DNA of 64,000 bases from Candidatus Omnitrophota bacterium (GTDB taxonomy: Bacteria; Omnitrophota; Gorgyraeia; Zapsychrales; Zapsychraceae), in NCBI GenBank assembly GCA_020429915.1, contig JAGQKV010000002.1:192061-256060 (forward strand), written 5' to 3'. How positions within the stretch are numbered: position 1 is the first letter of the stretch; each line of letters opens with the position of its first letter. The notes under the pieces are model-generated. The model had not been told where the DNA came from and searched no databases. It saw only the letters and a list, made by a program, of their open reading frames with translations. The position numbers and the translations under genes are program-made. Positions 2,826-57,500 of the stretch are shown here, piece by piece.

Positions 2826-2925
2826 TAGTGTGTATTAATTTCGAAATCCGAATCTTCGAATGCTCGAAGGAATATCGAATCTTCGAATGACCGAATGTTT
2901 GAAACGCTGGATGGTATTGTCCCGT
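2826..2925. repeat. TTCGAA-module composite repeat, copy E
   Basis: Array of (A/T)TTCGAA(T) and CGAATATCGAAT units ending cgaatgtttgaaacgctggatgg; homologous to the copies at 18490, 19325, 42085 and 57330, and an inverted copy of 3380-3500. Confidence 0.8.
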
Positions 2926-2962
2926 TAATGTCATGTTGGGGACAATTTAAAGAATTAGTATT

Positions 2963-3328
2963 TTATTCCAACTTTCTGACGATAGCGCCGAAAATCTTCA
3001 TCAGTTCATCGGATTCCTGGTGAAGATGGCGCTGAAGTGATTGTAGATCCAAATCGGGTCCCGCGTCAAGGATTCCAAGCCAATATCTGGCCTCCTTCGC
3101 CTCCTTACGGGAAACCTTTAGCCGGAAGATAAAATCTTTCTTCCCCAAAGCCTCATTAGCCTCGATATAGTTGGCACCAATCGAACCGGATGCGCGCACC
3201 AACTGCTTGGCGTCCTCCAGGTTCGGGAGGTCCTTGGGAATTTTTCTGATGAACTTCCGAACGTCTCTGGCGAAAGTGCGTGTACGATCTTCCAAATCGT
3301 AAATCCGGCCGGTCCTATCCTGATTCAT
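2963..3328 (-). CDS. four-helix-bundle protein (TIGR02436, '23S rRNA intervening-sequence protein' family)
   Basis: 121 aa; ...FARDVRKFIRKIPKD...ASGSIGANYIEANEA...EARYWL is the family signature. Confidence 0.8.
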   Translation of the reverse strand: MNQDRTGRIYDLEDRTRTFARDVRKFIRKIPKDLPNLEDAKQLVRASGSIGANYIEANEALGKKDFIFRLKVSRKEAKEARYWLGILDAGPDLDLQSLQRHLHQESDELMKIFGAIVRKLE

Positions 3329-3379
3329 GATGATCTCCTCTCAAGAGGGGATCGAGTGTGGCAGGGGTGTTTTTGTAAT

Positions 3380-3500
3380 TTGATTACATTTCGAAGATTC
3401 GAGAATTCGAACATTCAATATTATCCCAGGAGTTTCGAAATTCGAACATTCGGTTCTTCGATATTCCTTCGATATTCGAGGATTCGATATTCGAACCTAA
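3380..3500. repeat. TTCGAA-module composite repeat, copy F (inverted relative to copy E)
   Basis: The reverse complement of 3440-3500 (tcgaaggaatatcgaagaaccgaatgttcgaatttcgaaactcctgggata) aligns with copy E (ctcgaaggaatatcgaatcttcgaatgaccgaatgtttgaaacgctggatgg). Confidence 0.8.
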
Positions 3501-4822
3501 TACGCAGGAACTCCGCGGAGCTGATGCGGCGACGCCCCCGTAATCACGGCAGGAACAATGTCACCCACTTGATAATCGCCCTTTGAAATCGTGACCAGTT
3601 TATTGTTATCGGCGCGACCGAGGAAATTGTCGTCTGATTTTCGGGTCCCTTTCTTTTCGATCATGATGCTCATCGTCTGTCCGACATGCCGGGCGTTCAG
3701 CTTTTCCATGATTTCCCGCTGAAGCTCATTCAACGTCACAATCCTCTCCGTCTTGATCGCTTCAGGAACATCGTCCTCCATTTTACGCGAGGCGATCGTC
3801 CCCTTTCGTTGGGAGTACTTGAACATAAACGCCGAATCGAATTCGACTTCACGCATGACCTTCAGTGTCTGCTCGAACTCCTCATCGGTCTCGGTGCAGA
3901 AGCCGACGATGACGTCCGTGGAAAGCGCGATACCCGGGACCTTGGCGCGGATATTGTCGACCAGTTTGAGAAATTCGTTCTGTGTGTAGGTGCGGTTCAT
4001 CAGCTCCAGGATCCGGTCGGAGCCGGCCTGCAGCGGGAGGTGGATCTGTTTGCAGATATTCTCGTTGGCGGCCATCACCTCGAGAAACTTGTCCGGAAAA
4101 TCCTTCGGGTGCGGAGAGGTGAAACGGATGCGTTCGATGCCTTTGACCTTAGCCACGGCTGCCATCAGGTCGGCGAAGTCGTGCTCTTCGTGACGGTACG
4201 AATTGACATTTTGACCGAGCAGGGTGATCTGCTTGAAGCCATCGGCGGCGAGGCGTTCGGCCTCTTCGACGATATTGGCCACCGACCGGCTGCGTTCTCT
4301 TCCTCTGGTATAGGGCACCACACAGAAGGTGCAGAAATTGTTACACCCGCGCATGACCGCGATCCAGGCATTCACCCCGCCCTCGCGCTTGGGGTAAACA
4401 TCGCTGTATGTCTCGAATTCCGATAGCGTCAGATCAAAAGGCTTGCCTTCCCCGTAGGATTCGCTGATCAACTGCGGCAACCGTTTGTACGAATCCGGCC
4501 CCGCGATAAAGTCGATCTTCAATCCGCGGTCTTCGAACAGCTCGGTGCGCAGGTTGGTGGCCATGCACCCCAGGATCCCGATTTTCACCGGCGCCCCGGC
4601 CCGGTCATGCAGGATTTTGTGCACCCGCCCGTACACCTTCCGATGCGCATGCTCCCGGATGGCGCAGGTATTAAGCATAATAATATCCGCCTGCGCCTCG
4701 TCCTGCGTAAACGCGTAGTCCGCCTTGGTCAGAATTGCGCGAACGAGCTCGGTGTCGTATTCGTTCATTTGGCAGCCGTATGTTTCTAAGAAAATCGTCT
4801 TTTGTAACTTATTGTTATGCAT
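3497..4822 (-). CDS. miaB: tRNA-i6A37 methylthiotransferase MiaB (radical SAM)
   Basis: ETYGCQMNEYD...CNNFCTFCVVPYTRGRERSR plus a TRAM-like C-terminus. Start taken at MHNNKLQKTIF. Confidence 0.9.
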   Translation of the reverse strand: MHNNKLQKTIFLETYGCQMNEYDTELVRAILTKADYAFTQDEAQADIIMLNTCAIREHAHRKVYGRVHKILHDRAGAPVKIGILGCMATNLRTELFEDRGLKIDFIAGPDSYKRLPQLISESYGEGKPFDLTLSEFETYSDVYPKREGGVNAWIAVMRGCNNFCTFCVVPYTRGRERSRSVANIVEEAERLAADGFKQITLLGQNVNSYRHEEHDFADLMAAVAKVKGIERIRFTSPHPKDFPDKFLEVMAANENICKQIHLPLQAGSDRILELMNRTYTQNEFLKLVDNIRAKVPGIALSTDVIVGFCTETDEEFEQTLKVMREVEFDSAFMFKYSQRKGTIASRKMEDDVPEAIKTERIVTLNELQREIMEKLNARHVGQTMSIMIEKKGTRKSDDNFLGRADNNKLVTISKGDYQVGDIVPAVITGASPHQLRGVPAY

Positions 4823-4989
4823 ATAGTTGTAAATGTAAAATTTTACCATAATTTCGTATACATTCACCTGTCCCCTTTATGGGCACCTGGTACGTTTCTT
4901 TAGAAACGTCATGCAATGCTTGCAATACATCCTACGCAGATTTATCAATGACAATATCTTGGTAAATTGATGGCATTTAATTTACTCCT

Positions 4990-5298
4990 TTATTCTTCGG
5001 CAAACTCTTTTAGGGCTTTCAAGCGTTGATCCCATTGATCCTCAAGTTTAGATATGAATTGCCGTGCTCTTTCTAATTTTGATGGATTAAGGATAACACG
5101 GATTTCCCGTCCATTTGGTTTAAGTTGAACGACATCAGCGGAAACAAGAACTTGAATTTGTTTTCGGGCCCCCTGACGTGTTATTCCGAGATTTTCTGAA
5201 AGATTGCCAATTGTGTAGTCTGATCCGTCAGACAATCGCTTAACGATTTTCAGACGGATCGGATCACCTAACGCTTTGAAAACTTGCGTCACTGTCAT
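4990..5298 (-). CDS. ArsR/SmtB-family transcriptional regulator
   Basis: 102 aa; ALGDPIRLKIVKRLSDG...GNLSENLGITRQGARKQIQVL is an HTH_20-type motif. Confidence 0.85.
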   Translation of the reverse strand: MTVTQVFKALGDPIRLKIVKRLSDGSDYTIGNLSENLGITRQGARKQIQVLVSADVVQLKPNGREIRVILNPSKLERARQFISKLEDQWDQRLKALKEFAEE

Positions 5299-5739
5299 TT
5301 ACACACCATCAAACTGTTCAGCAAGTCGCCCAAGCATGAAATCCCACCCTTTGGAGTTTTGCTGGAACTTTCCTTCTGCCACTTCCTTTGGTAATTTGGA
5401 AAACCCGGATTCCGTGAGCGTCACTTTACAAACGCCTTTTTTTATCTCTTTAATCGTAAATTCGACTAATGTATTGGCAACTGACAAAACATCACCTGTA
5501 AAATGATTACTTCCCGGAACCCAGCGATATGAAAAATATTCATACGGCTTTGAATCTTGAATATAAATCTGATTTTTACCATGTTCGCCAAAGTCAAAAA
5601 TTGGTTGTTCTCCGACTTTATAAGAGCCTTCAACTTTATCCGGAAACCATAACACTACTTTCTTTGGATCGGCGATGGCTTCGAAAATTTGCTCTTTCGA
5701 AGCAGTAATTTCAATTTCACGTTTAATCGTATCTTGCAT
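5299..5739 (-). CDS. SRPBCC / Aha1-domain protein (activator of Hsp90 ATPase homologue-like)
   Basis: 146 aa. The architecture is a frequent ArsR partner. The stop abuts the ArsR start. Confidence 0.75.
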   Translation of the reverse strand: MQDTIKREIEITASKEQIFEAIADPKKVVLWFPDKVEGSYKVGEQPIFDFGEHGKNQIYIQDSKPYEYFSYRWVPGSNHFTGDVLSVANTLVEFTIKEIKKGVCKVTLTESGFSKLPKEVAEGKFQQNSKGWDFMLGRLAEQFDGV

Positions 5740-5799
5740 TTTTACCTCCCGAGACTTGATTAATAAGCTATTTCGGAAACTATACTATGAAAATAGCTT

Positions 5800-5823
5800 A
5801 AATGCAACTATATAGTTGCATTT
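5800..5823. promoter_or_regulatory. perfect 24-bp palindrome aaatgcaactatatagttgcattt, candidate ArsR-type operator
   Basis: Exact inverted repeat about 60 bp upstream of the SRPBCC-ArsR operon start (5739, minus strand). Confidence 0.5.
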
Positions 5824-6301
5824 ATAGCGATGAACCAAAAATTAATCAAACCTATTGTTTTTTGACTGATTCAAACAGCTCTTTCAAATCCTGCAAACCT
5901 TTTTCGAAATATCATTACAATATATACAAATATGGCAATCACAATTATGAAAATTAAAATAATTCCGTTAAACGTGGACTGTTTTCTATTTAAACTTATC
6001 CAAAGTTACCAAAAAAATTTCTAAAATCCGTAGTTTATTTTTTTACAACTGATTGTAAATTATGATCTTATCGCATTTATAATCTTCATTAAAGTTTTAC
6101 CATAAAGAGCTGTACGGTCAACCGTAGGTCTCAATGAAGATCTTTTTATTTTCTGTTGTAGTAATCATAAATGAATCCTTACGCTTACGAAGCAAAGCGA
6201 CGTAAGTGTTAGGTTGAATTTATCCCCCGAGCATAAGTGAGTGGGGATAGCCCGGAATTATACAACCTTTACTGTGGAAGTACAAGACGGACACAGAGGT
6301 G

Positions 6302-7357
6302 CTATATTCTTCGGTATCTCGTCGAACGCCCTTGTCCAATCCGTTCGATTCTCTTAAGCTTCAGGAGACGGTCGAGGACTTGGTTGACGGTCGGGCGGGC
6401 GACGTCCGCATTCTTGGCGATCTCGGCGGGAGACGCCTCATCGACAGTTTGTAGATACTCCCACACCGCCAGTTGTTTCGGCGACAGGAGCTTTTCGATG
6501 CTCTCAGCAGATAACAACTCAATGGCCGCTTTGGCTTGGGTATGAACGGCTGATAGAAAGAATTCGAGCCAAGGGGTAATATCCGGTTTCTTGCCATGCA
6601 TGGTTTTCTGGCTCTTGCGCAGGGCCAAATAGTAATCCGGCTTGTGGTCTTCAATCAACTTCTCGTGGGAGACATACGGAATATAAGCATAGCCGTGCTG
6701 AAGCAATAGCAGGTTGGTCAATATCCGTGACAGCCTGCCGTTCCCGTCCTGAAACGGGTGGATCAATAAAAACTCAACCACAAAGTTACCGATAATCAGC
6801 AAAGGCGGATACTTGGCCGTCTCAAATGCGCCTAATGTCGCTTCAATGAGTTCCTGCATGGCTTTGGAGGTTAAATAGACCGGAGTAGTATCAAACAGGA
6901 TACCGACCGACTGCCCCGCGTCATCGAGCATATGCACTTTGTTTTCCGACTTCTTGTACTCACCTCTGTGTCGGATATCCTTCTCGACGTATTTCAGCAG
7001 TTCCTTATGAAAGTGCTTGACGGTGGCTTCGGAAAAACGGACGGATTTCCAGGAATCGAAGACATTCTGAAGGAGCTCAAAATACCCCTGTACCTCCTGC
7101 CTGTCCCGGTCGGCGAATTTCTGAATGGCGATACCGCGCATCAGTTTTTCGATATCCTCGTCCGAGAGTTTGGCTCCTTCAATACGGGTCGAGGCCCCGG
7201 TGGAGGTGATCAGAACAGACCTTTTGAGGCGTCCCAGCAGGGCCGGATTCAGCTTGGCACCCGACACCCATCTCCCCTTTAACTCGTCAATTTTGATGAT
7301 TTTAGACCAGATTTCCGGGGGAAGGTTATCTAAACGGCTTGTAAAGGATTGACTCAT
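6302..7357 (-). CDS. Fic-family protein (AMPylation/Fido domain) with C-terminal winged HTH
   Basis: 351 aa; HPFQDGNGRLSR is the canonical Fic motif. The C-terminus PAEIAKNADVARPTVNQVLDRL is HTH-like. Confidence 0.9.
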   Translation of the reverse strand: MSQSFTSRLDNLPPEIWSKIIKIDELKGRWVSGAKLNPALLGRLKRSVLITSTGASTRIEGAKLSDEDIEKLMRGIAIQKFADRDRQEVQGYFELLQNVFDSWKSVRFSEATVKHFHKELLKYVEKDIRHRGEYKKSENKVHMLDDAGQSVGILFDTTPVYLTSKAMQELIEATLGAFETAKYPPLLIIGNFVVEFLLIHPFQDGNGRLSRILTNLLLLQHGYAYIPYVSHEKLIEDHKPDYYLALRKSQKTMHGKKPDITPWLEFFLSAVHTQAKAAIELLSAESIEKLLSPKQLAVWEYLQTVDEASPAEIAKNADVARPTVNQVLDRLLKLKRIERIGQGRSTRYRRI

Positions 7358-7420
7358 ATAGCCTCTTTTTCTTATATATCAAATATATAAGATTATATAA
7401 GATAATATAAGAATGTCAAG
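7358..7420 (-). promoter_or_regulatory. near-consensus sigma70 promoter for fic
   Basis: Read on the minus strand: ccaggcTTGACAttcttatattatcttaTATAATcttatatatttgatatataagaaaaAGAGGctataATG, i.e. TTGACA-16-TATAAT. It overlaps a threefold 'tatataaga' tandem. Confidence 0.6.
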
Positions 7421-7529
7421 CCTGGCTAGGGTTTGGGGGATTAGGTATTGTGTCCCTGGAATTACAAAACATGTGTCCGAAAATATGCGCGGCGTGTTTT
7501 AATCGTTTTCTTTTCATTGCTTAAAGCAG

Positions 7530-7787
7530 CTAAAACCAGTATTTCTTCATTTTTGTAAGAAACTGTTTCTCTATTGGGAATCCAGAACTACTGCCGATAA
7601 CAGAATCAATGCCACATTCCGGGCACAATGCTGTTTGGCCGATATCACTTTCATCTTCGTCAATCCACTCCTCGATCTTGTTCGGAGGGTAAATGGCTAG
7701 GCAGTGAAAACAACCGCAAATTTCGCTCGACAATATTTCTTGTCGATGCCCGCTGGAATGTTTGTGTGCACGAATAATATTAAACAT
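7530..7787 (-). CDS. small Cys-rich protein with CGCFHC...CPECG zinc-ribbon/CPCC-like motif
   Basis: 85 aa ORF in the AT-rich island; two CxxC-type pairs. Confidence 0.5.
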   Translation of the reverse strand: MFNIIRAHKHSSGHRQEILSSEICGCFHCLAIYPPNKIEEWIDEDESDIGQTALCPECGIDSVIGSSSGFPIEKQFLTKMKKYWF

Positions 7788-7949
7788 TGAGTTTACTCTT
7801 CATTATTGAATCTTTATCCTATTCAACAAAGTTCCTACAATTCGGGGCAATTCGGGGGACACGATACTTAATTATTGTGAATTAGGTATTGTGAGCTGAC
7901 CCGGGTCAGCTCATTGTGTCCCTGGGATTTATAATCTTTGTTCACGTCA

Positions 7950-8342
7950 TTATGTCTTTCCATAATCAAACTTGACCCATTTATTATTCACCAAGCATTC
8001 ACAGTTATCACCTGGATTTAAAAAATTCTTCCCCTTTTTTAGACGAAACTGATGGTTTTGAAGTGCTGTAATCAATCGATGAAGATGGTCGACCATTTCG
8101 GCTTCGAGTACACTTTCAGGTCTGTCGTCATATCCTAAATAATCGCACCAATCGGAAAACTTCAATTCTGATTCTGGACGCTCAATTTCCAAGAACCATT
8201 CAAGCGCCGAATACGCGACGGTGATTTTGAAAACTAAGTCGTTTTTTGAAAAGCTTAGTACAAATGCATCGTCTAATTCTTCAAGACTGAAATTCGGTTT
8301 GTTGCCGTATTCTCTTATTGAATCTAAAGAGCTATTATCCAT
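7950..8342 (-). CDS. hypothetical acidic protein (immunity-protein-like)
   Basis: 130 aa ORF with no recognisable motif. Confidence 0.45.
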   Translation of the reverse strand: MDNSSLDSIREYGNKPNFSLEELDDAFVLSFSKNDLVFKITVAYSALEWFLEIERPESELKFSDWCDYLGYDDRPESVLEAEMVDHLHRLITALQNHQFRLKKGKNFLNPGDNCECLVNNKWVKFDYGKT

Positions 8343-8462
8343 AAGTTAACATTATGCGCTTTTCGTTAAAGATTGTTATAACGGGTCAATTGCTGTGTGT
8401 TACAAAAACCTCGGCGTGGATTTGCATCAACGCGCGCTTTTTAACCCAATTTTCAGCCATAG

Positions 8463-8551
8463 GTTTCAACAAAAACCTTCTTCATGGATAGCTCCGTACG
8501 GGTTTTTGTTGAAACCGGGGTCGGTGCCCCGATGCTCCAACGGGGTACCGA
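8463..8551. other. two adjacent long hairpins in a 440-bp gene-free gap (candidate structured RNA or terminator)
   Basis: ggtttcaacaaaaacc...22 nt...ggtttttgttgaaacc forms a 16-bp stem; gtcggtgccccg-atgctccaa-cggggtaccgac forms a 12-bp stem with one mismatch. Confidence 0.4.
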
Positions 8552-8781
8552 CCGAACTTTAGGTAACCGAATGTCTCAATAAAATACAAATTATTATCGC
8601 ATGTCATTTCAATCATTTATGATGATCGTCCTTTACGCATTCATCGGCTTATTAGCAAATGAACGAGTATGCTATTTCTTTCAAAATAATGTATTTACTC
8701 AGTCCCTAACAGGCTATACAATTTTGAAATTGTATTGAAATTTCTGGCAGTTGCAGAAACTCCTATTTATGCCTCAGCTTT

Positions 8782-9213
8782 TTAAAATATCCATTCCCAA
8801 ACTATACCATCTTCTTCGTCATTAACTTCACCAATTAATTGAAAGCCGCTCTTTTCAAGTATTCGCGTTGATGCATTTTTTTCACAAAGCGTTCTGGCAG
8901 TGATCGTAATATTGGCATCACTACTGTTTGCCAATTGGATCAATTCCTTTACCATTTCTGAAGCATAACCCTTACCTTCGAATCCAGGAAATGTAAAATA
9001 GGCTATTTCTACCTTATTTTCCCTTGGCGGATACTTAAATCCACATGTTCCGGTGCATTGCTTCCGATCGTATGCAAAATAACATATCCAGGGAGGTATG
9101 TATCCCACTTTCTGATATAGCGCCCTTGTTAAAGAGATAAGCTGAGCCATTAACTCAGGTTTATCGGCAAGGCATTGAAAATCATTGTTTTCATCGATTT
9201 GTAATAGTCTCAT
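8782..9213 (-). CDS. GNAT-family N-acetyltransferase
   Basis: 143 aa; acetyl-CoA-binding-like motif EGKGYASEMVKELI. Confidence 0.75.
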   Translation of the reverse strand: MRLLQIDENNDFQCLADKPELMAQLISLTRALYQKVGYIPPWICYFAYDRKQCTGTCGFKYPPRENKVEIAYFTFPGFEGKGYASEMVKELIQLANSSDANITITARTLCEKNASTRILEKSGFQLIGEVNDEEDGIVWEWIF

Positions 9214-9663
9214 TTATTCTTTCAGCATCAATCGAAACGGGACCATAGTCGATAATTTAAAGCCATGTTTCAGATAAAACCTCTGGGCTGAAGTGTTTGT
9301 TTGATCGGTCAGCAATGTGATTCGCCTGCAGCCGTTGATGTGTGCCACTTGAATAGCGCTTTCAAGTAACTTTGATCCAATGCCGTTACCTCTTGTCTCA
9401 GGCAAGATTACCATATCTTCGAGTATAGCCACGCGTTCGCCCAAGGCAGTAGAAACTGTAAACAGTACGTTGACCATCCCCACAATTTTATTATCCATTC
9501 TAGCGATCATGATGTGCCCAATTTCAGGATTCTCCATAATTTTCAGCAACCCTTTCCTCTGGGCTTCAGCATTTGGCGCAAATTCTTCCTCTTGAGAGAA
9601 AAGTATGTCTAAAAGACGACAAAGTTCGGGGATGTCTGAGTCTGATGCATTAAGAATTTCCAT
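9214..9663 (-). CDS. GNAT-family N-acetyltransferase
   Basis: ...RGNGIGSKLLESAI... Start chosen at MEILNASD to abut the upstream methyltransferase. Confidence 0.75.
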   Translation of the reverse strand: MEILNASDSDIPELCRLLDILFSQEEEFAPNAEAQRKGLLKIMENPEIGHIMIARMDNKIVGMVNVLFTVSTALGERVAILEDMVILPETRGNGIGSKLLESAIQVAHINGCRRITLLTDQTNTSAQRFYLKHGFKLSTMVPFRLMLKE

Positions 9664-9664
9664 C

Positions 9665-10435
9665 TTATTTGTTTCCCACGTATATTGATATTGGGTAGGA
9701 AAAATGGATTTCCTCATTCACTGTGCGCGCATTTATCCCTAAAGCATCCACGCCAATGTCATCTTTAAAGATTTCCCTTATCTTTTCATCATCCCCAGGT
9801 TTTGGAAAAGAAGTTTTCAGTTGTTTTTCAAGTTCCATTTCAACATAATATTCCGTTCTTTTTAGATTTTGAAGTCCGGATTTGTTTAGAAGTTTTTCCC
9901 ATTGATCGAACGATAAGGCGCGCGTATGTGATGGGTCCCGTAGTTTTTCCATATGATTGTATGCATCGACCTTTTCCGAGGGCAGAACAGGATCAGCGAT
10001 CAGAACGACACCGCCTTTCGTGCAGACGCGAATCATCTCATTCAGAACAGCCTCAGTATCCAGAAAGTGGTGAAAAGTGAATCGCGTAATCACTGCTGAA
10101 AACGAACCGGAATCATAGGGTAATGGCAACACGCTTCCGACATCCCACGACAAGTTTTTCAAACCCAGTTGCTTTTGCCGGATATTGGCCTGCTTGATCA
10201 TCTCTTCTGTGATATCGATGCCTTTTACCTGCTTGGCAATTTTTGCAAATTCACAGGCAACTAGTCCTGGCCCGCACGCAACATCTAAAACAATGTCGCT
10301 GTCCGAAACCCCACTTAATTCAATCAAGAGTTGAATTGAGTCTAGATGTCCCGGCAGTGTTGCAAAAGGAATCGCCTGCTTTGTAAACTGGTTAATTATT
10401 TCATCATCATGTCTTTGCTGCTTTTTTCGTTTCAC
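9665..10435 (-). CDS. class I SAM-dependent methyltransferase
   Basis: VLDVACGPGLVACEF is a Rossmann motif I. Confidence 0.85.
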   Translation of the reverse strand: MKRKKQQRHDDEIINQFTKQAIPFATLPGHLDSIQLLIELSGVSDSDIVLDVACGPGLVACEFAKIAKQVKGIDITEEMIKQANIRQKQLGLKNLSWDVGSVLPLPYDSGSFSAVITRFTFHHFLDTEAVLNEMIRVCTKGGVVLIADPVLPSEKVDAYNHMEKLRDPSHTRALSFDQWEKLLNKSGLQNLKRTEYYVEMELEKQLKTSFPKPGDDEKIREIFKDDIGVDALGINARTVNEEIHFSYPISIYVGNK

Positions 10436-10452
10436 AACTATTTCCTTTTTGT

Positions 10453-10656
10453 TTATTCAGTATATGCTTTTTTTAGAACAGCTATATCATCTTTCTTGCC
10501 CTTGAGAAATGTTTGGATAATGCGTGTGATTTTGCTAGCATCGTTTGATTGCATCATTGCGTTTAGTGCGGCAGGACAATTCAGATAGGCTGAAGGGACT
10601 CCAGAAATTGCCTCTATCCTACCGGTCATCAGCGTTTTAGGAGGTTCTACGGCCAA
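10453..10656 (-). CDS. short hypothetical ORF, possibly a gene remnant
   Basis: 67 aa ORF with no motif. Confidence 0.25.
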   Translation of the reverse strand: MAVEPPKTLMTGRIEAISGVPSAYLNCPAALNAMMQSNDASKITRIIQTFLKGKKDDIAVLKKAYTE

Positions 10657-10710
10657 GCGTAAAAAGATAGGTGCACACGTTTCCGGGAGCTGTCGTTAAT
10701 GATTGATTTT

Positions 10711-11064
10711 TTATTCGTAATGAGCATAAGCTTTTACGACCTTACCGTAAGTGTTGAAATGAAAAACCTCGGCCGCAGGCTGCCTGCCAACGCCATGATA
10801 ATATAGTGTCACACTCTCTACCCCCACCAGCACCGTGATCAACTCAAAGTGAAGATCCGGCATCCTATCAAGCGCCTTGGTCCAATATTCCCGAACCTTT
10901 GCCTTCCCTTTAAGCTTGCCGGAAGGTTCCCCGATAATACGGACAATTTTTGGGGAATTCATTTCAAAATTATCTGTATAATGCGTCAGCACTTGTTCAA
11001 TATTATGCGCGTTCCAAGCGCTAATCCACTCATTGGCAAACTGTATAGCAAAATTCCTATCCAT
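10711..11064 (-). CDS. NTF2-like / SnoaL-like (ketosteroid-isomerase fold) protein
   Basis: 117 aa; pattern ...WISAWNAHNIEQVLTHYTDNFEM... is typical. Confidence 0.65.
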   Translation of the reverse strand: MDRNFAIQFANEWISAWNAHNIEQVLTHYTDNFEMNSPKIVRIIGEPSGKLKGKAKVREYWTKALDRMPDLHFELITVLVGVESVTLYYHGVGRQPAAEVFHFNTYGKVVKAYAHYE

Positions 11065-11366
11065 GTCTCTTGTCTTATCCCGGCGTTGAGGTGATTATGA
11101 AATGGCTTTTAGAGTTAGTTGACGCATTTCTTAAATATTTTGTTTTCAAAAAATGGGTGGTGTTTCAGAAATCGCGTGAAATATCAATTGGCGAAGCTCC
11201 ATAAGCTTTTGTCTGATCTCAGGTGAGAAATCAGAAGACACCTTTCTTACACATAGATTTGTAAGTTTATTGTTCATATAGTTTAGGTCTTGCTATACGG
11301 GCATTTATCCGACTCTATACCGGAAAGGCTGTTGCGGAGTTCTGATACGAATTAATTCCCCTGCCT

Positions 11367-11603
11367 TCAGGTCCTGCGTGAATCTGACTTTTTCTTAAAA
11401 GGCTTCTTCACACCCGAGTAAAACGGTTTTCTGTCGTTCTTCTCTTTATCACCGGAATAGGGACGCGGCTGATATCTGCCGCCGCCCTGCGGCCTGCCCT
11501 GGGTCTGCTGGATGAGCGTGTCGATCTTCTTTTCCAGATACATCATACGCTTCTGCAAATCTTTAGTGATGTTTAGAATTTCTGAATCCTTTTCGGGTGC
11601 CAT
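11367..11603 (-). CDS. small basic hypothetical protein
   Basis: 78 aa. A conserved promoter module (TATAAT at 11673-11668) and an AAGGA Shine-Dalgarno 9 nt upstream support expression. Confidence 0.45.
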   Translation of the reverse strand: MAPEKDSEILNITKDLQKRMMYLEKKIDTLIQQTQGRPQGGGRYQPRPYSGDKEKNDRKPFYSGVKKPFKKKSDSRRT

Positions 11604-11791
11604 GTAGGTATCCTTTGATTAATGGGGAAATGTCCCCGGTCTGCGGAATCGGTGGTCGTAACGGCGAATTATAGCGGTTTCACCGGATTTAAACAAGGCG
11701 GGACTTGGGTGTTCCAAACGGGCAATTACCCGACTCTATACCGGAAAGGTTGTTGCGGGGTCCTCAAACGAATGATTCCAGAACATTGCAT

Positions 11792-12535
11792 TTAATTGGT
11801 GCTTCCTTTTGTTGGAAAAGGGACGAAATACGGCGAATTCATTCCGATGCTGGCATCCTCTACGACGCCTGCGTCAAAAATGCGTATGTAGAGGGCAGCC
11901 TTCATTTTAGCGACAGATTTTGGAAATGCATCCAATGCAAAATTCTTGGCATTTTCGATTGTATCAAACGCATAAAATCCACCTACGGTATTTGTATTCA
12001 CGCCGCTAAGCCATGTTTTGGCAAGAAGCCCCGGTTGAGTCTTCAAAATTGGATTGCGCTCATTCCAAGGGAACTCTTCAAAAGGTACGTTGACCTGCAC
12101 CTCCGTATAGACGAAGGCCCCTGGTTTTTTGTCAAGTTTCCCTCCAAAATCAACCGACCCCATGTCTTGACTCGCCTCCTTAACCTTCACCGCATCAAAG
12201 ATACGCGTGGTATGCCCCTTCCCCTGTTTCATGGCCCCGGCAGGAAAAAACTCCGTAACATATTTCTGGGCATTTTCAATGCTGTCAAACGAATAGAAGC
12301 CCCCAACAGAATTATTGCCCAATCCCGAAAGCCAGGTTTTGCATATAAAACCCGGTTGTGAGGATATAACGGGATTGCGTTTATCCCATGGAACTTGTTC
12401 AAATGGGACTGAATTCTGAACCTCCGTATAAACAAATGCCATTGTGGTGGAGTTGTCTGAGTGAGCTTGTGAGGGAATGGTTGACAAAATGAAAAGTGAG
12501 AGAGATAAAATGTAAATAAGACTCTTTTTGGTCAT
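11792..12535 (-). CDS. secreted protein with two tandem YdhR-like (putative monooxygenase, PF08803-like) domains
   Basis: Signal peptide MTKKSLIYILSLSLFILS, then a twofold repeat FVYTEVQ..VPFE..PW..RNP..QPG..KTWLSG...VGGFY.FD.IENA. PGF..K.W......GG.Y.F resembles E. coli YdhR. Confidence 0.6.
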   Translation of the reverse strand: MTKKSLIYILSLSLFILSTIPSQAHSDNSTTMAFVYTEVQNSVPFEQVPWDKRNPVISSQPGFICKTWLSGLGNNSVGGFYSFDSIENAQKYVTEFFPAGAMKQGKGHTTRIFDAVKVKEASQDMGSVDFGGKLDKKPGAFVYTEVQVNVPFEEFPWNERNPILKTQPGLLAKTWLSGVNTNTVGGFYAFDTIENAKNFALDAFPKSVAKMKAALYIRIFDAGVVEDASIGMNSPYFVPFPTKGSTN

Positions 12536-12716
12536 AGAGTTTGTCTCCGGTTGAACGAATGAATATTCTTCTCGTTGATTGGCGTTTGTCTTCTCATTTC
12601 GACAAATGATTTCCTGATTTGAGAGTGTTCTGGCCATATGTTACGCCGATGCTTTGGCGAAGTCTACATTGCCGGTCTTAACGCATTTTCCTCCTATTCA
12701 TGCGGCAACATGGGGG

Positions 12717-13193
12717 TTATTTATCCTTCTTGGAGTCTTGCTCCTCTTCAAGGATGCTCAAATAAGTGCAGGCATCACCGTTAATGCCGATCTTTACTTT
12801 TTTCCCGATGCTCTTGCTTAATTCTTCGTCTGTGTCGGTCTTTTGCATGAGGTTAAGGTTGCCGCTTATGGCCGCCATAAAGAAATCATCCTCATTTTTG
12901 TATCCGTATTCAATCCCTTGAGTTTCTTTCGAAAGGGTGCATTTAACGGACGTTTCTTTTAAAGGACCTGTCAGCATTTTTACTTCGATAATACCGCCAG
13001 GTTGGTAGGACAAGATTATGGCTTGAAATACCTGAATGGCCTTCATGGTTCCGCTTTTAAAGAGTTCGGAGGCATCGGTTATTAATTCAACCTCGTCTTC
13101 CATATTATCCGCTTTTGATTGGGCTGCGGCCGGCATGGCCACGAAGCCGTTTGTACACACAAGCACTAATCCCACCAGTAGCCAATTTTTCAT
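12717..13193 (-). CDS. secreted hypothetical protein
   Basis: 158 aa with a signal peptide. Confidence 0.5.
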   Translation of the reverse strand: MKNWLLVGLVLVCTNGFVAMPAAAQSKADNMEDEVELITDASELFKSGTMKAIQVFQAIILSYQPGGIIEVKMLTGPLKETSVKCTLSKETQGIEYGYKNEDDFFMAAISGNLNLMQKTDTDEELSKSIGKKVKIGINGDACTYLSILEEEQDSKKDK

Positions 13194-13203
13194 TGTGCCT
13201 CCC

Positions 13204-13728
13204 TCATGCGCCGCCGGCGCTATAAGATTTTATCTGAATATTGTGAATGATTTTAAACAGGTCGCTGTCCGGATCTATGACATTTTGACAGCTGTCGAGT
13301 AAAACCTTGCCGCGGTTGGTCGAAAACGCATAGATAAACTGCGCTCCGTCATAGGCGGTCGGACACGTGCCCGTAAATTTGGTTGCCCGGATACTTTCAA
13401 AATCAGTCGTCTCGATCAGCCAGATTAATTCCATGAAGTCTTGTTGATCGATCTCGAAGGACCGCTCGCGGACAGGTTTTTCAGGCGGGCCTTCTTGAAC
13501 GCTGCCTGTGCCATCCTGGTAAACCGACAAGGTGGTGCGACATTGGCCGTAAGAGCACATCCCGCCGACATTGCGGACCTGTAGCAAGGCCTTAGGCGGC
13601 GTCGCCGTCTTTTCCTGCGCCCGACCGGGCGCGGTGCCGAGAAGGACCGTCCAACAGAATAGGATAATAATCCTGCGATATATCCGGACCCTTCCCGCTT
13701 CACATGAGGCGTGCGGGAAAGTCATCAT
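13204..13728 (-). CDS. secreted hypothetical protein, possibly leaderless
   Basis: The TATAAT of the conserved promoter module sits at 13742-13737, so the ATG at 13728 lies about 8 nt downstream of the -10. The track ORF starts at a TTG at 13737. Confidence 0.45.
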   Translation of the reverse strand: MMTFPHASCEAGRVRIYRRIIILFCWTVLLGTAPGRAQEKTATPPKALLQVRNVGGMCSYGQCRTTLSVYQDGTGSVQEGPPEKPVRERSFEIDQQDFMELIWLIETTDFESIRATKFTGTCPTAYDGAQFIYAFSTNRGKVLLDSCQNVIDPDSDLFKIIHNIQIKSYSAGGA

Positions 13729-13904
13729 AATGGGCAATTATAACGGTTTCGGCGGATTTAAACAAGGCGGGAGTTGGGGGCGTCCGGAAGGGGTATCGAC
13801 CTCATTGACGGACGGAGAGGCTGATGCGGAATTTTTTGTACGAATTACGTAAAGCTGCCGGCCCGATAACACCGGGCCGGCATTAATTTGTCAACAAATT
13901 ACCC

Positions 13905-18672: not shown

Positions 18673-18721
18673 CAAATGGCTCCTTCCGCTCCAACCAGGG
18701 TGCTTCTCAGGAGAGCGCCCC

Positions 18722-43252: not shown

Positions 43253-43366
43253 GCCGTGAAAAAGGTGTTGTTATTTAAGTGGTTGCCTTGTCTGGTTTTG
43301 GGGTGTTCTGATGCCATATATTAGTAATTGTTGTAGCCGTTAACACCGCTTACTTGCTGTCCAGTT

Positions 43367-44092: not shown

Positions 44093-44383
44093 AGTTACCT
44101 CCGGATAAAAAGTTAGTTAGTTCAATATATATCCATTCACAGTAAATATACTTATTAACCATTGATGATATTCTAAAAGATTATTAAAAATGGTGTCGTT
44201 TCTCATATTCCCATCATCGTTACAGATTTACAACTAAAGCATCCACTACCGTACGCAGCGACCTTGTTCACTTAGAATGCGACGATAATGTTGTATTATC
44301 TCCCACCCCCCGAAGACCGTCAACAGACTTGATTCCACCTCAAGCGTAGAAATGTGCAAAAAGGTCAGTTGAACGATACTGCC

Positions 44384-44605
44384 TTAATTCTTTTTAACGA
44401 CGGATTTAAGATACAGTTCCTCGACCTTCTGCCGCGCCCAGGGGGTGCGGCGCAGGAAGGTCAGGCTGGATTTGATGCTGGGATTCGACCGGAAGCAATT
44501 GATTTCAATCAACTCCCCCAGCTTTTTCCACCCGTAATGCATGGACAGAAAGGTGACCATCTTCTCCAGCGTAACGCCGTGCAGGGGGTCGTTGGAACGG
44601 TGCAT
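44384..44605 (-). CDS. VF530/DUF2132-family small protein
   Basis: NDPLHGVTLEKMVTFLSMHYGWKKLGELIEINCFRSNPSIKSSLTFLRRTPWARQKVEELYL. Confidence 0.7.
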   Translation of the reverse strand: MHRSNDPLHGVTLEKMVTFLSMHYGWKKLGELIEINCFRSNPSIKSSLTFLRRTPWARQKVEELYLKSVVKKN

Positions 44606-45597: not shown

Positions 45598-46632
45598 TTA
45601 ATCCCTTTGAAAATAATTATCACACGCCGTGCGGAACCGGTTCCAGAGTTCTTCGTCTTTGTCGCGCGGGACCGGGCCGGTTTCTTTCCATTGCTGCTGC
45701 AGCTCCTTGATCCGCTCGCGGGCACTCTGGAAGCTCTTAAGCGCGATAAGCTTCTCGACCTCCTCGCATATCTCCTCTTTTTTCCACAGGTTCTCGAGGC
45801 GTTCGCGGTCTTTCTGCTGAAAGTACTCCTGGCGGCGGGTGAAAAAGCCGTCGCACGCGCCGCGGAACCGGGTCCACAGTTCGTCGTCCTTCTCGCGCGG
45901 GACCGGGCCGACGTCCTTCCACTGCGCCTGCAGCTGCTTGATCCCCTCGGCGGCGGCCTTCCAGTCATCGGACAGCGCTAACTCCTCGGCCTGCGCGCAC
46001 AGGTCTTCCTTGAGCTTCAGATTTTCCTGACGGGCCTGGTCGAGTTCTTCGTAATGCTGTTTGCGGGCCTCATAGAAACGGTCGGCGGCGGCGCGGTAGC
46101 GGTTCCAGATCTCGATGTCGCGCACCTCGGACACGGGACCGGATTCCTTGAATTGTTCCTGCAGTTCCTTGACCTCCTCCGAGGCCACCTTCCAGTCGTC
46201 GGTCTGCGCCCAGGCCTCGATCTGTTCGCAGATCCGGATTTTCATGGCGAAGTTTTCGTCGAGTTCTTTTTCAACGCTGTCTCTGAGCGCGTGCAGTTTG
46301 GTGAGCAGTTCGTCGAAATCGCCGAGGGCGTCGGCGGCGGGGATGAATTCGAGCAGTTCGTAGATCTTGGTGAGAAAACGCGCCTTGTGCTCGGGCTGTT
46401 CGGCCTCGGCCGCGAGTTCGTCGTAATACTTCCACAGTTCCTGAAAGCGGGCCGCGAGTTTGGCGAAGGTCTCTTCCTCACGGCCGGCAAAGACCTGCCC
46501 GACGATCTTGCCTTTTTTAAGCGTGAAGTCTTTTTGCCATATCTGCCCCTGGTCCGTGACATACCCCCACGGCCGGGCCAATTCGTTGGCGGTGCGGTAG
46601 GATTCGGGAGATTGTTCTTGATCAGCAGACAT
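45598..46632 (-). CDS. DUF349-domain protein
   Basis: Repeated W..GPV....DEELW.RFR.ACD.FF units, four times. Confidence 0.75.
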   Translation of the reverse strand: MSADQEQSPESYRTANELARPWGYVTDQGQIWQKDFTLKKGKIVGQVFAGREEETFAKLAARFQELWKYYDELAAEAEQPEHKARFLTKIYELLEFIPAADALGDFDELLTKLHALRDSVEKELDENFAMKIRICEQIEAWAQTDDWKVASEEVKELQEQFKESGPVSEVRDIEIWNRYRAAADRFYEARKQHYEELDQARQENLKLKEDLCAQAEELALSDDWKAAAEGIKQLQAQWKDVGPVPREKDDELWTRFRGACDGFFTRRQEYFQQKDRERLENLWKKEEICEEVEKLIALKSFQSARERIKELQQQWKETGPVPRDKDEELWNRFRTACDNYFQRD

Positions 46633-47173: not shown

Positions 47174-47398
47174 GGCTTGTCCTTTGGCAACCGTTCCTGA
47201 TTATTGGAATTTTCCCATAGATATGTTCAAGTTCGTTGGCATGCTTCAAAGGTTTGGCAGGCTCGTTGGCGCTCTGAAATGCGTCTTCGGTCGGTGTTTG
47301 ATCGGAAGTCACGGTCCCCCCTTATATCGGTTCCAAGGGCCAATTATAACGGTTTTGCCGGGGAAGCTCAAGCGCGGGATGGCGCCCGCCAATGTGTC

Positions 47399-48142: not shown

Positions 48143-48180
48143 AGATAAGTTCTATCCGCATACGGCACTTGTTGCCACAA

Positions 48181-48393
48181 TTACTGAAAACGATCGGCGA
48201 GCTTGGCGACGGTCTCTTCCTCCCGGCCGGCAAAGACCTGCCCGACGATCTTGCCTTTTTTAAGCGTGAAGTCTTTCTGCCGGATCTGCTCCTGGTCGGT
48301 GACATACCCCCACGGCCGGGCCAAATCCTGTGCCTTTTGATGGGATTCTGAAGCAGGATGATTATCTGAGCTCATGGGTTTCTTTCTGGTCAC
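48181..48393 (-). pseudogene. truncated duplicate of the DUF349 gene 5' end
   Basis: About 110 bp of nearly identical DNA shared with 46450-46600. The protein fragment ...ARPWGYVTDQEQIRQKDFTLKKGKIVGQVFAGREEET matches residues 18-57 of the full gene. Confidence 0.6.
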
Positions 48394-49010: not shown

Positions 49011-49190
49011 CTGGCAATTATAGCTGTTTTGGGCCGTCTACTCAAGACGTACGTGTCCGTGCCGCGGAAGAAATAATTCCTTCATTATTGGGGATCCGTT
49101 TTGCTAGAATAGACCGAAACTTTTCACGGACAGGCGGTCGCCATCCAGGGGACCGCCTGGGTTACCACCCCCTACAAAGGACGGGAATAG

Positions 49191-52617: not shown

Positions 52618-52769
52618 GTGTGCTCCTTTGTGACGGGTGGAGATTTCTGGAGGCGGCTTCAGGGTGAAGTGTTAGCCGCAATTATAACTGTTTTTTGGGG
52701 GAAGCTCAAGCCTCCGGATTGTGCCTCAGGAAAAAGCGGAGACTCAAAGATTGGATGAGTGGACCGGGT

Positions 52770-55585: not shown

Positions 55586-56422
55586 TTACCGGCACTGTTC
55601 ACCGGAGACGGCCAGTTCGGCAAACGGTTCGCCTTCCTTGTCCTTGTAAAAAAAGGATAGCGTGGCGCCCTGGTCAACCAGGATCCGCAAATTCGGTACG
55701 GTGCATGATTGGGCGATCAGTAACGGTTGCATTGCCTCGATAAAGGCATCCCTATTCAGTTCGGTCGCGCGGTCATTGACCAGGGTGTACCGGTACTGAA
55801 AGGTATTGTCCTGAATCGCGATCTTATCGAGGCGGGTGTCCTCGTCGACCATCAGCGGCAGCTGCGGATCGAGATGGCGCTTGGCCAGCCGCAGGAATTC
55901 CTCGAGGACCGGGGATTCGGCCTGTGGGCAGTCCGAGGCGACTTTGGATTCCGCGAACTCCTCGACGATCCGGTAACCGGCGCCGGTATCTTCGATAACT
56001 AAATAATAGTTGGGATCCGCATAGCACTTGGCCGCTGAGTAGCGGGTGGCATGGATGGTGACACGGTTACCTTCGGTGGAATAACGGACATCCGAATACG
56101 TACTGATGTCGCCCCGTTGCTCCGCCAGCGGCATCACTTTGCCGATGAGCCCCTTCATTTGTTTGCCGCTCATTTCCATGGGATTACGGCGTCCGTCCGG
56201 CTGCAGCCGCTGGGTACGGATTCGGGCATCGTCGGTATACAGGTCGGCCACGGCCGGATCGAAGCTGTGCTCGAGCTCGACAAACCGGTTGAAGAAGGCC
56301 TCCTCCTTTGTTTCCTGGGTCGCGTTTGCGCCGGTCGCGGCGCACACGGACAGGCAGCTGATCGCCACAAGGGTAACGGTCGGAATGAGTCCCGGTCTTT
56401 TTATGGGGTTGGTTGTTCTCAT
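55586..56422 (-). CDS. secreted hypothetical protein
   Basis: 278 aa with a signal peptide. Confidence 0.5.
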   Translation of the reverse strand: MRTTNPIKRPGLIPTVTLVAISCLSVCAATGANATQETKEEAFFNRFVELEHSFDPAVADLYTDDARIRTQRLQPDGRRNPMEMSGKQMKGLIGKVMPLAEQRGDISTYSDVRYSTEGNRVTIHATRYSAAKCYADPNYYLVIEDTGAGYRIVEEFAESKVASDCPQAESPVLEEFLRLAKRHLDPQLPLMVDEDTRLDKIAIQDNTFQYRYTLVNDRATELNRDAFIEAMQPLLIAQSCTVPNLRILVDQGATLSFFYKDKEGEPFAELAVSGEQCR

Positions 56423-56441
56423 AGGATTTTCGACTTTCCCG

Positions 56442-56792
56442 TTAGCGGCCGAATTTCTCGGCGCAGTTAATACACATGGTCGATTCGGGCAGGGCCTTGA
56501 GGCGCTCCAGTCCGATCATGTTTTTGCAATACCGGCAGCGTCCGAACTGTTCGGTATCGATAATCTGCAGGCTGTGGTGGAGTCGCTCGATGTTGGACCG
56601 GGCCACCTGCAGGTTCGCCTCCTGCATCTGCTGGATCTGCATGGCATCCATGCGGGTCAGACGACCCAACGAGACATCCGGTTCCACCGGCTTGGCCGTG
56701 TCTTCGAGGCTAGGCAGGCTGGCCTCGATTTCACGGATGCGCGCCTCGATCGCCGCCTTGATCTCCTCTTTTTCCGCGCGGGTCAGCGTCAT
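56442..56792 (-). CDS. TraR/DksA-family C4 zinc-finger protein
   Basis: C-terminal CRYCKNMIGLERLKALPESTMCINC. Confidence 0.75.
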   Translation of the reverse strand: MTLTRAEKEEIKAAIEARIREIEASLPSLEDTAKPVEPDVSLGRLTRMDAMQIQQMQEANLQVARSNIERLHHSLQIIDTEQFGRCRYCKNMIGLERLKALPESTMCINCAEKFGR

Positions 56793-56861
56793 AGCCGGGG
56801 GCCGCGTCGAAAAAAAGACCGGTTATCGAAGAATGGTCTTTGTGTAACTGTCATGACGCTC

Positions 56862-57317
56862 CTAGCGGTTTTTAAGGTGGATGGCCATCGCGACAATGCC
56901 CCAGATCACGAGTCCGGTGACGCCGATGATGAAGATCCATTTCATCAGCGGCCGGATGTACTTCCGAAAGAACACCGCGACCGAGACCGGTACTGCTATC
57001 GATACGACGCGGTACCAAATCGGCAGCCCCTGCCAGAGGACCTCAAAGGTTTCCGGCTGATTGGCCCAGGGATTCTCTACGGTAGCGGCCTGCCATCCTA
57101 CCAGCATACCGAGAAAACCGAGGCCGCTGAAACTGACCAGGCACAGATACGGGTTGAGGAAAAACGCCGCGAAGATCTTGATCAGCGATTCGCCGAATTG
57201 CTGTCCCGCATCCACGTGCTCCTTGACCATCGGATTGACCGGTTGCCGTCGTCTGGCGCATTCGGGGCACGAATGGGAACTGTTACAGTACGCGTAACCG
57301 CAGATCTCGCAGCTCAT
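56862..57317 (-). CDS. zinc-ribbon membrane protein
   Basis: MSCEICGYAYCNSSHSCPECARRR, then three TM segments. Confidence 0.55.
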   Translation of the reverse strand: MSCEICGYAYCNSSHSCPECARRRQPVNPMVKEHVDAGQQFGESLIKIFAAFFLNPYLCLVSFSGLGFLGMLVGWQAATVENPWANQPETFEVLWQGLPIWYRVVSIAVPVSVAVFFRKYIRPLMKWIFIIGVTGLVIWGIVAMAIHLKNR

Positions 57318-57329
57318 GTGTTTTGTCCT

Positions 57330-57500
57330 TTCTGTGTATTCGACGAATTTTCGAATCCCGAATATACGAGACGAATTCAAATCACGCCATCACCGACTGT
57401 TCAAAACAGATTTGATAATGTTTCAGTGATTTAATCATTCAATGATTCGATATTGTCTCGAAAACTCGAGGATTCGAGTTTTCTATCCTGAATCCGCTTA
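57330..57500. repeat. TTCGAA-module composite repeat, copy D
   Basis: gattcgatattgtctcgaaaactcgaggattcgag plus cgaat units; homologous to copies C and A. Confidence 0.7.

Follow-up and report, generated by a model that had tools for sequence, protein, structure and literature searches.

Ribosomal RNA (rRNA) genes of Salmonella and Yersinia contain gene-less intervening sequences of roughly 100-150 nucleotides (nt). Hairpins also occur dispersed between genes: REPIN-RAYT systems comprise doublets of repetitive extragenic palindromic (REP) sequences and a single-copy transposase gene (RAYT) flanked by them, and are stable and apparently vertically inherited, and bacterial MITEs (miniature inverted-repeat transposable elements) such as the Correia elements of Neisseria are often co-transcribed with their neighbors, the paired ends of their transcripts being RNase III substrates. 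The rRNA intervening sequence of Coxiella carries a PF05635 gene in the loop of a 28-bp terminal stem that is cut by RNase III, along with a variable number of tandem heptamers; it has been called unclear for more than 25 years where such intervening sequences and their S23p gene come from and what they do, with a mobile-element hypothesis for them untested (PMC4990558). Here we analyzed a 64-kb stretch of a Candidatus Omnitrophota contig (JAGQKV010000002.1, positions 192,061 to 256,060; hereafter the window), in which an original prediction had described at least six dispersed copies of a repeat built on palindromic TTCGAA motifs. We find that these repeats are the arms of one cassette bearing a PF05635 gene, and of four gene-less derivatives, and that the same architecture is common to homologous cassettes in many phyla, placed precisely between cistrons. 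With a probability of roughly 70%, we read the six sites as a single family of hairpin cassettes around a four-helix-bundle gene (PF05635/TIGR02436), a selfish family that resembles both rRNA intervening sequences and MITEs.

All six sites exist, at coordinates within ~10-20 nt of those predicted, and all are AT-rich and intergenic, lying between minus-strand genes. They are the only places in the window with at least four CGAAT/ATTCG pentamers per 100 nt. TTCGAA itself occurs across the whole window at chance level (33 observed against 31.3 expected from shuffles), and 20 of these 33 occurrences fall inside the 1,030 nt of the elements, which make up 1.6% of the window (binomial p ~6e-28). 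The predicted alignment of two copies over ~160 bp at ~80% identity was recovered by our repeat finder (family D4; 18511-18671 versus 19348-19508, 161 nt, 78% identity), and the modules gaatgCTCGAGacaatat, cattcggtgatt and caaacg..caggttt were all found. The palindromic TTCGAA heptamer proposed as the basic unit did not hold up: the real unit is a degenerate 8-nt tandem repeat, and the arms are runs of this unit that read CGAATNNT on one strand and ANNATTCG on the other, interrupted by GAGACAAT, AAAACAAT and TTCAAACG variants. Placed in one orientation, ten arm halves from the six sites gave a single consensus ending at the palindrome center (...CGAGACAATATCGAATCATCGAATnACCGAATGTTTnAAACG). The arrays are, as had been stated, distinct from CRISPR, consisting of contiguous degenerate 8-mers in inverted arms with no regularly spaced identical direct repeats and unique spacers. 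Rfam gave nothing at the gathering threshold in the window; its sole match at E<=0.1, a plant microRNA-precursor model on one arm (E=0.057), lies far under the cutoff and was dismissed as chance. No further copy of the TTCGAA-type arm was found in ~18 kb of additional flank of the same contig.

Six copies proved to be the wrong count for six real sites. The first two are not separate copies: together, as inverted arms around a gene, they make up one element. The remaining four are gene-less elements. The parts of the gene-bearing cassette are:

2826-2925, minus strand: 3' arm of the cassette (predicted copy 1), with a core at 2833-2907 made of 8-nt CGAAT-type units; it holds GTTTCAAACATTCGGTCATTCG, the family's post-stop signature.
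2963-3328, minus strand: four-helix-bundle gene ivp1, 121 amino acids, between the arms (PF05635, E=1e-12; TIGR02436, E=6e-19).
3380-3500, minus strand: 5' arm of the cassette (predicted copy 2), abutting the stop codon (3497-3499) of the upstream miaB-like gene.

PF05635 bears the name “23S rRNA intervening sequence protein” and TIGR02436 the name “four helix bundle protein”; Pfam and NCBIfam give only these two matches for ivp1, with no nuclease or transposase domain. The protein also matches PDB 2RLD, an entry with five chains, at E=3.5e-10. The 3' arm is an inverted repeat of 3440-3472 (repeat finder I13), and at 2905-2833(-) it matches, with E=1e-4, a 3'-arm profile derived from unrelated metagenome elements only. 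The 5' arm matches a 5'-arm profile at 3502-3430(-) with E=0.004, and the 3'-arm profile with E=0.03. In the minimum-energy fold of the entire 679-nt element (2822-3500(-)), closure is by arm-arm pairing (z=-5.7), and terminal complementary sequences close the gene-less hairpins into stem-loops in the same way. The ivp1 locus recurs, identical, in many metagenome assemblies.

The four gene-less elements are 155-245 nt long and non-coding, with inverted arms, and one of them (copy 4) is decayed:

18499-18680, no strand assigned: gene-less hairpin (predicted copy 3), with arms at 18504-18602 and 18610-18673 and a 7-nt loop; z=-3.2.
19335-19510, no strand assigned: gene-less element (predicted copy 4), a paralogue of copy 3 in direct orientation, its palindrome decayed; z=-2.1.
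42101-42346, no strand assigned: the largest gene-less hairpin (predicted copy 5), with arms at ~42105-42205 and 42216-42346, abutting a DUF1579 stop codon at 42347.
57335-57490, no strand assigned: gene-less hairpin (predicted copy 6), with inverted matches to copies 1, 3 and 4 (repeat finder I2, I4-I6, I9, I11); z=-3.1.

These four sites are long imperfect palindromes whose arms are joined by a short loop at the place of the gene, and their predicted RNA folds are more stable than dinucleotide shuffles, with z-scores of -3.2, -2.1, -6.4 and -3.1 for sites 3 to 6. Copy 3 contains a 62-nt inverted repeat (73% complementary), and the external 3'-arm profile matches it at 18610-18674(+) with E=3e-6 over profile positions 2-70. 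Copy 5 folds at -96 kcal/mol, shows profile matches at E=0.01-0.02, and has a right arm that is 84% complementary to the 3' arm of the cassette (repeat finder I1). Copy 6 has weak profile matches (E=0.1-0.4); copy 4, the most decayed, contains no ungapped inverted repeat of at least 20 nt, and its profile matches are likewise weak (E=0.2-0.3). The gene-less copies retain the inner signature ATCACCGAATGTTCTAAAC, which matches the family's ATGACCGAATGTTCAAAAC with the start codon mutated. They thus share both arms and inner, gene-proximal segments with the gene-bearing cassette, which bears out the predicted likeness to MITE-type non-autonomous elements. Sites 2 and 5 adjoin the stop codons of miaB and DUF1579, and the left ends of the sites lie 14-38 nt from the next start codon. 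The genes beside the six sites (NAPRTase, OmdA, TMEM175, DUF1993, DUF1579, MiaB and unknowns) are functionally unrelated. A scan of a genome collection with the NAPRTase gave only relatives of 61% identity or lower, spread over many phyla.

In its plan, the cassette closely resembles the S23p rRNA intervening sequences of Leptospira and Coxiella burnetii: a gene of the same family lies in the loop, terminal inverted repeats form a long stem, and the size falls in the range of 0.4-0.7 kb. Variable short tandem repeats adjoin the gene in both Coxiella and the window, as GACAGAT heptamers in the former and as 8-nt units with a 16-nt indel between strains in the latter. The parallel extends to size classes, with a PF05635 gene in the loop at 2826-3500 as in the large S23p intervening sequences, and four gene-free copies like the small rRNA intervening sequences. 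Unlike these, which sit in helix 9, 25 or 45 of 23S rRNA, the window elements are intergenic, with protein-coding genes on either side (Rfam detected no rRNA in the window, either at the gathering threshold or at E<=0.1), and the family has dispersed gene-less derivatives in the same genome. This last property recalls REPIN-RAYT, where one gene is likewise bracketed by an inverted short repeat that is also dispersed intergenically as hairpin doublets in stable copies; however, the window gene encodes a 121-residue four-helix bundle without an HUH/Y1 nuclease domain and is therefore not a RAYT, and its arms are tandem arrays of 7-8-nt units where a REP is a single palindrome. The gene-less elements are also small, non-coding and intergenic with terminal inverted repeats, as Correia elements are, and like MITEs generally they occur as several dispersed copies (four gene-less and one gene-bearing in 64 kb) and are internal-deletion derivatives of a longer element whose ends they share. 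In contrast to MITEs, the full-length element encodes no recognizable transposase.

Homologues of ivp1 at ~60% identity are very numerous. In three metagenome-assembled genomes the gene lies inside an operon (GltX-ivp-PfkB; E2-ivp-E3 of a 2-oxoacid dehydrogenase; ABC ATPase-ivp-MacB permease), each time with inverted arms of the same kind, and ~80 further unrelated metagenome contigs encode homologues with 53-63% identity and the same arms, as read from their flanks. The flanks follow a strongly conserved scheme. The 5' arm in these cassettes takes the form (AAATYCGA)n-CGAAACAAATTCAA-ATG, with 34 nt comprising four 8-nt units (AAATYCGA...) and then CGAAACAA, and the start codon sits a few bases past the end of the arm (..ATTCAA-ATG-ACCGAAA). 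On the 3' side, the stop codon is followed by GTTTTGAACATTTGGTCAT...TTGTTTCGGATTTCG(A/T)..TTCGGATTT. An exact-pattern scan of the metagenome set for the module TCGAGACAATAYCNRATCANNNAAT gave 0 matches.

We searched the window with the 3'-arm profile, which was built solely from foreign metagenome contigs. It matched site 3 over its full length (E=3e-6), site 1 (1e-4), site 5 (~0.01-0.02) and site 2 (0.03), and sites 4 and 6 weakly; one match in the window fell off the elements (E=0.05). The full-length 3' profile is required for this result, as a 40-nt arm-only profile is weak in the window. These E-values concern AT-rich periodic sequence and are to be read alongside the empirical control: at E<=0.01 the profile found 0 matches in 1.22 Mb of control loci and 201 in 431 kb of ivp loci. 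Of these 201 matches, 177 adjoin ivp genes, and the other 24 are mostly back-to-back inverted pairs, which represent gene-less hairpins. Contig L130 illustrates the relationship: in a co-directional gene cluster, three successive spacers hold a gene-less, a gene-bearing and a gene-less element. One of the gene-less copies has the same arm as the gene-bearing copy 1.2 kb away and also its gene's first 18 nt (ATGACAGAAATTAAAAAT), which is the mark of an internal-deletion derivative and supports the MITE-like reading on unrelated contigs as well.

The metagenome set yielded two further observations. In L103, L132, L133, L142 and L154, which contain ivp1-like cassettes, some of them CTAA-armed, the translated flanks look like places where leuC ends (..GKLTDPRKYL*) and leuD begins (MPKAHVY..), a pattern that would fit a preferred site or else an old insertion passed down within a clade. 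Tandem cassette arrays or reiterated 3' arms are present in L165 (~1380-1480), L115, L120, L127, L135, L143 and L169, for example as three successive TTGTTTCGGATTTCGAAATTCGGATTT blocks, and suggest local amplification of arms or cassettes.

Placement was quantified in 51 non-redundant gene-bearing elements. The upstream neighbor is co-directional in 42 and opposite in 2; for the downstream neighbor the corresponding counts are 33 and 5. In 23 of the 42 cases, the upstream gene's stop codon has its end between -6 and +2 nt relative to the arm's first base, and in 10 it overlaps the arm by 1-2 nt (T-AAAT, the hyphen marking the junction), and the downstream start lies at most 21 nt from the arm end in 18 of 33. 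Read by eye, the junctions often take the form T-AAAT...ATTT-A, inconsistently. The two arms of an element are matched to each other: CTAA-type and CGAA-type units agree between them (7/1/0/41, Fisher p=9e-8), and in a gapped test the complementarity of cognate arms was 36.0 versus 30.8 for non-cognate arms, a modest but significant difference that was reached by 0 of 10,000 permutations. Folds of whole elements close on the arms.

The same contig holds two further PF05635/TIGR02436 genes in the 8.7 kb left of the window, ~4-8 kb from position 1 (L001 15424-15907 and 18721-19210). Around each lie inverted arrays of 33-36 nt, built of a unit particular to that gene, ~7 nt long and of GGTGATG and GGGATAC type, respectively, as read from the arm sequences AGGGTGATGAGTGGTGAGTGATGGGTGATGATC and AGTCGGGATACGTGATACGGGATAAGTGATACGAAC. 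The second gene (18808-19161) is uncalled in the source annotation. Since these genes have their own arrays, being enclosed by short tandem repeats in inverted orientation characterizes the gene family, and TTCGAA is one arm type among several. The four-helix-bundle gene is the sole gene physically tied to the repeats within ~82 kb. The two left-flank proteins, ivp2 and ivp3, match the Avd model of diversity-generating retroelements weakly, both under its cutoff (E=6e-11 and 1.5e-6), and ivp1 fails to reach it. PF05635 has been described as Avd-like (PMC10053308), and the two share a homologous pentameric four-helix-bundle fold; unlike in diversity-generating retroelements, the gene tables for the ~82 kb show no RVT-family (reverse transcriptase) match, and no template repeat or variable repeat lies nearby. 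Scans of viral contigs found no relatives of ivp1-like or ivp2 proteins.

More distant homologues (31-41% identity), annotated “four helix bundle protein”, are encoded on plasmids of cultured bacteria. Four of the six plasmid loci examined lie between two co-directional annotated genes, or five of seven when a Xanthomonas chromosome is counted:

Chondrinema, co-directional: four-helix-bundle gene between an RND adaptor and a permease.
Pseudanabaena galeata plasmid (L185), co-directional: four-helix-bundle gene between csx2 and cas1, in a CRISPR-cas locus.
Chlorohelix, co-directional: four-helix-bundle gene between a helicase and an N6-methylase.
Bernardetia, co-directional: four-helix-bundle gene between KAS III and an M20 hydrolase.
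Nostoc TCL26-01 plasmid (L182), opposite strand: four-helix-bundle gene between cas2 and cas1, in a CRISPR-cas locus.

Each of the six plasmid genes lies between inverted arrays of a unit peculiar to it, ~7 nt as read, the cleanest being that of Nostoc flagelliforme, where ATAATTCGTAATTCGTAATTCGTAATTCGTAATTA faces its perfect complement (35 nt at 100%). For Xanthomonas campestris XCC0516 (PDB 2GSC, five chains in the entry), most of the sequence was recovered from a structure-database alignment, and the gene family and locus were then fetched. The XCC0516-type gene lies between accB and accC and has GGGAATCGGGAGTGGAGAATCGGGAATC on one side and inverted GGGAATAGGGAGTCGAGAATGGGGAATGGG on the other (L188 2930-2957 and 3343-3372), with three GGGAATC matches against 0.03 expected. 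GGGAATC is a known dispersed repeat with ~186 sites in X. campestris, including 70 in the form of convergent inverted pairs; it has been studied as a G-quadruplex former and judged unassociated with mobile elements, and its role “still remains to be elucidated” (PMC4692102). Similarly, TAACTGA heptamer repeats of unexplained function occur in Beggiatoaceae, cyanobacteria and Bacteroidetes (PMC4679880). Dispersed heptamer arrays have been read as G-quadruplex or translational signals (PMC4692102, PMC4679880), and neither paper mentions the four-helix-bundle gene (0 occurrences of “helix bundle” or “S23”). Both families share with ours the arrangement as intergenic tandem short-unit arrays and differ in the unit, which is 7 nt long and of other sequence, against 8 nt in the window. 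The Xanthomonas gene stands in the same relation to GGGAATC as the window gene does to the TTCGAA-type arms.

A related strain (GCA_020429985.1, contigs L085-L089), ~92% identical to the window, has every examined element in the same place. The cassette around ivp1 is 97% identical in this relative, more than its flanks are, and the ivp1 protein is 98% identical; the gene differs at about ten sites, mostly synonymous as read from the alignment. The sole length change across the cassette is a 16-nt deletion, exactly two 8-nt units of the 5' arm (window 3402-3417 versus L085/L086), which fits slippage of tandem units like the heptamers reported for the Coxiella intervening sequence. Sites 3, 4 and 5 are 91%, 94% and 92.5% identical, compared with 67-93% at third-codon positions of flanking genes, which points to additional constraint that is weak at most. 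Directly after the site-5 element, the relative has an Hcp gene; in the window, a 21-kb block (~21053-42070) intervenes (compared with L088 4283-4655), with a TpsB-type transporter (ShlB/POTRA), a 4,486-residue exoprotein that has no Pfam match, a transpeptidase, a methyltransferase and DUF1993. The outer end of the site-5 hairpin element forms one boundary of this 21-kb indel. The relative's copy of site 5 also contains a nested GC-rich insertion of ~40 nt (L088 ~4456-4496), a small palindrome (TTCGACTCCGCTCA..TGAGCGAAGTCGAA) that looks like a second tiny hairpin inserted in the first.

We envision the cassette as a selfish element, mobile now or formerly, that would insert into intercistronic spacers and be expressed by read-through transcription from the host operon. 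Its arms, of at least 4-5 tandem 7-8-nt units each, may serve both as terminal inverted repeats and as a recognition array for the pentameric four-helix-bundle protein that the cassette encodes; the occurrence of 4-5 units per arm in typical cassettes beside a pentameric protein is suggestive only. In the transcript, the arms could pair and RNase III could cut the resulting stem, by analogy with rRNA intervening sequences (PMC4990558), which would make the insertion harmless. The gene-less copies would be non-autonomous relics, old and positionally stable in this genome.

Several observations weigh against this reading. No empty site and no unambiguous target-site duplication was found, either at the junctions of the elements or in the strain at 92% identity, and copies that sit at the same positions, with conservation roughly equal to that of synonymous sites or slightly above it, give no sign of recent movement. 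Neither the source tables nor our own scans contain a transposase, integrase, reverse transcriptase or RAYT among the Pfam matches in ~82 kb around the window, and to our knowledge four-helix-bundle proteins have no catalytic activity. The window arms, with CGAATNNT units, and the metagenome consensus, with CGAAATYC units, are only modestly alike, the best match of a 40-nt arm profile reaching E=0.005. In a fixed register, cognate and non-cognate arms pair equally (0.62 versus 0.60), partly because 8-nt slippage shifts the register. Finally, mismatches between arms are symmetric, with 148 G.U-compatible and 144 A.C-type, and so lend no support to selection on an RNA stem specifically. Taken together, the pairing and mismatch data are no better explained by a selected RNA stem than by terminal inverted repeats or protein-binding arrays.

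The strongest competitor, which we consider unlikely, is that the repeats are host regulatory sites, operators or RNA sites through which a trans-acting regulator, possibly the four-helix-bundle protein itself, controls adjacent genes, with autoregulatory flanks at its own gene and nothing mobile. Every site does lie directly upstream of a gene start, at 14-38 nt; the units differ by lineage and agree between an element's two arms; the elements keep their positions from strain to strain and are no less conserved than synonymous sites; and the symmetry of mismatches favors constraint at the DNA or protein level over an RNA stem. Yet the neighboring genes have no functional relation to one another, the same cassette recurs in many unrelated operons across phyla, and the gene-less copies retain inner segments, and on other contigs 18 nt of the gene's beginning as well, which gives them the look of deletion derivatives and not of an independently evolved operator. 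The arrays of dimeric-regulator sites that the original prediction had entertained are not supported as stated, for related reasons: the unit is an 8-nt direct repeat, the neighbors are unrelated in function, and the elements derive from the cassette by deletion. In a weaker version of that idea, the four-helix-bundle protein of the cassette may itself bind the tandem units. Host-kept intercistronic hairpins that process or stabilize mRNAs, in the manner of REP sequences and bacterial interspersed mosaic elements (BIMEs) or of RNase III sites, with no selfish element involved, appear improbable. Such punctuation would account for co-directional intercistronic placement and strong predicted stems, and RNase III cleaves the stems of the homologous rRNA intervening sequences (PMC4990558). 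It would leave unexplained the enclosed conserved protein gene and the derivation of gene-less from gene-bearing forms, and it sits poorly with the lack of G.U versus A.C asymmetry and with copy 4, which has lost its stem yet is 94% conserved.

Equally improbable in our estimation is that the elements are ordinary MITEs of a conventional transposon encoded elsewhere (for example IS630/Tc1-like, with TA duplication) and that the four-helix-bundle gene is a passenger caught between two of their copies. Their terminal inverted repeats and small size agree with this, as do ends that are often preceded by T and followed by A, as read by eye, which are compatible with a TA duplication. However, the pairing of gene and arms holds across ~80 unrelated contigs, where the arm contains the start codon, and recurs with other units in other four-helix-bundle subfamilies, so that repeated chance capture is very unlikely; moreover, the Pfam matches over ~82 kb include no transposase. 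We give hardly any weight to integron-like attC sites or to chance AT-rich low-complexity spacers. The elements do share with attC sites the form of imperfect palindromes between small co-directional genes, and a 21-kb strain-specific block abuts one of them, but arms of 70-130 nt of 8-nt units are not attC architecture, and no integrase is present among the Pfam matches in ~82 kb. Chance spacers are ruled out by the clustering of the motifs together with the clean 1.22-Mb control of the 3'-arm profile (0 matches at E<=0.01).

The window has several other features. A second dispersed family (D5/D7) occurs at 11656-11709, 13725-13778, 39943-39996, 47341-47373, 49015-49047, 52679-52711 and 60826-60858; on the minus strand it reads TTGAGC-N17-TATAAT, a near-consensus sigma-70 promoter upstream of minus-strand genes, and is probably a shared strong-promoter module. 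The G+C content is 32-45% at 4800-13200 and 42800-44400, versus ~57% elsewhere, and the first of these regions, which contains a Fic-domain gene and small genes of mixed function, was likely acquired horizontally. A DUF349-family gene contains three tandem 231-nt repeats at 45620-46185 (77-residue protein repeats), and a 179-nt segment is duplicated at 85% identity 1.7 kb apart (46432-46610 and 48175-48353).

Extending the selfish-cassette reading to the family as a whole, we tentatively propose, at less than even odds, that PF05635/TIGR02436 (Avd-like) proteins are dedicated partners of lineage-specific tandem 7-8-nt arrays across bacteria, in an arrangement reminiscent of RAYT and REPIN with a non-catalytic pentamer in place of the transposase. 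The gene-bearing hairpin would be the master element, a ring of about five subunits would read an arm of ~4-5 units, and rRNA intervening sequences, the Xanthomonas GGGAATC repeats, the TTCGAA family and possibly the cyanobacterial and Beggiatoa heptamers would be insertions or gene-less derivatives. The searchable literature, mostly without subscription journals, contains no prior account of PF05635 cassettes outside rRNA or of their tie to dispersed repeats, and an earlier description is possible. The cassettes also matter for annotation, where they split operons; one of the three four-helix-bundle genes near the window was uncalled in the source. For the published heptamer and octamer repeat families that lack an explanation, they offer a candidate, notably for GGGAATC in Xanthomonas (PMC4692102), a genetically tractable organism in which the structure of the four-helix-bundle protein is already solved. 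Overall, the gene-in-hairpin plan of rRNA intervening sequences is now seen outside rRNA, positioned precisely between cistrons, in many phyla and with gene-less derivatives, as would be expected if the element were mobile or selfish.

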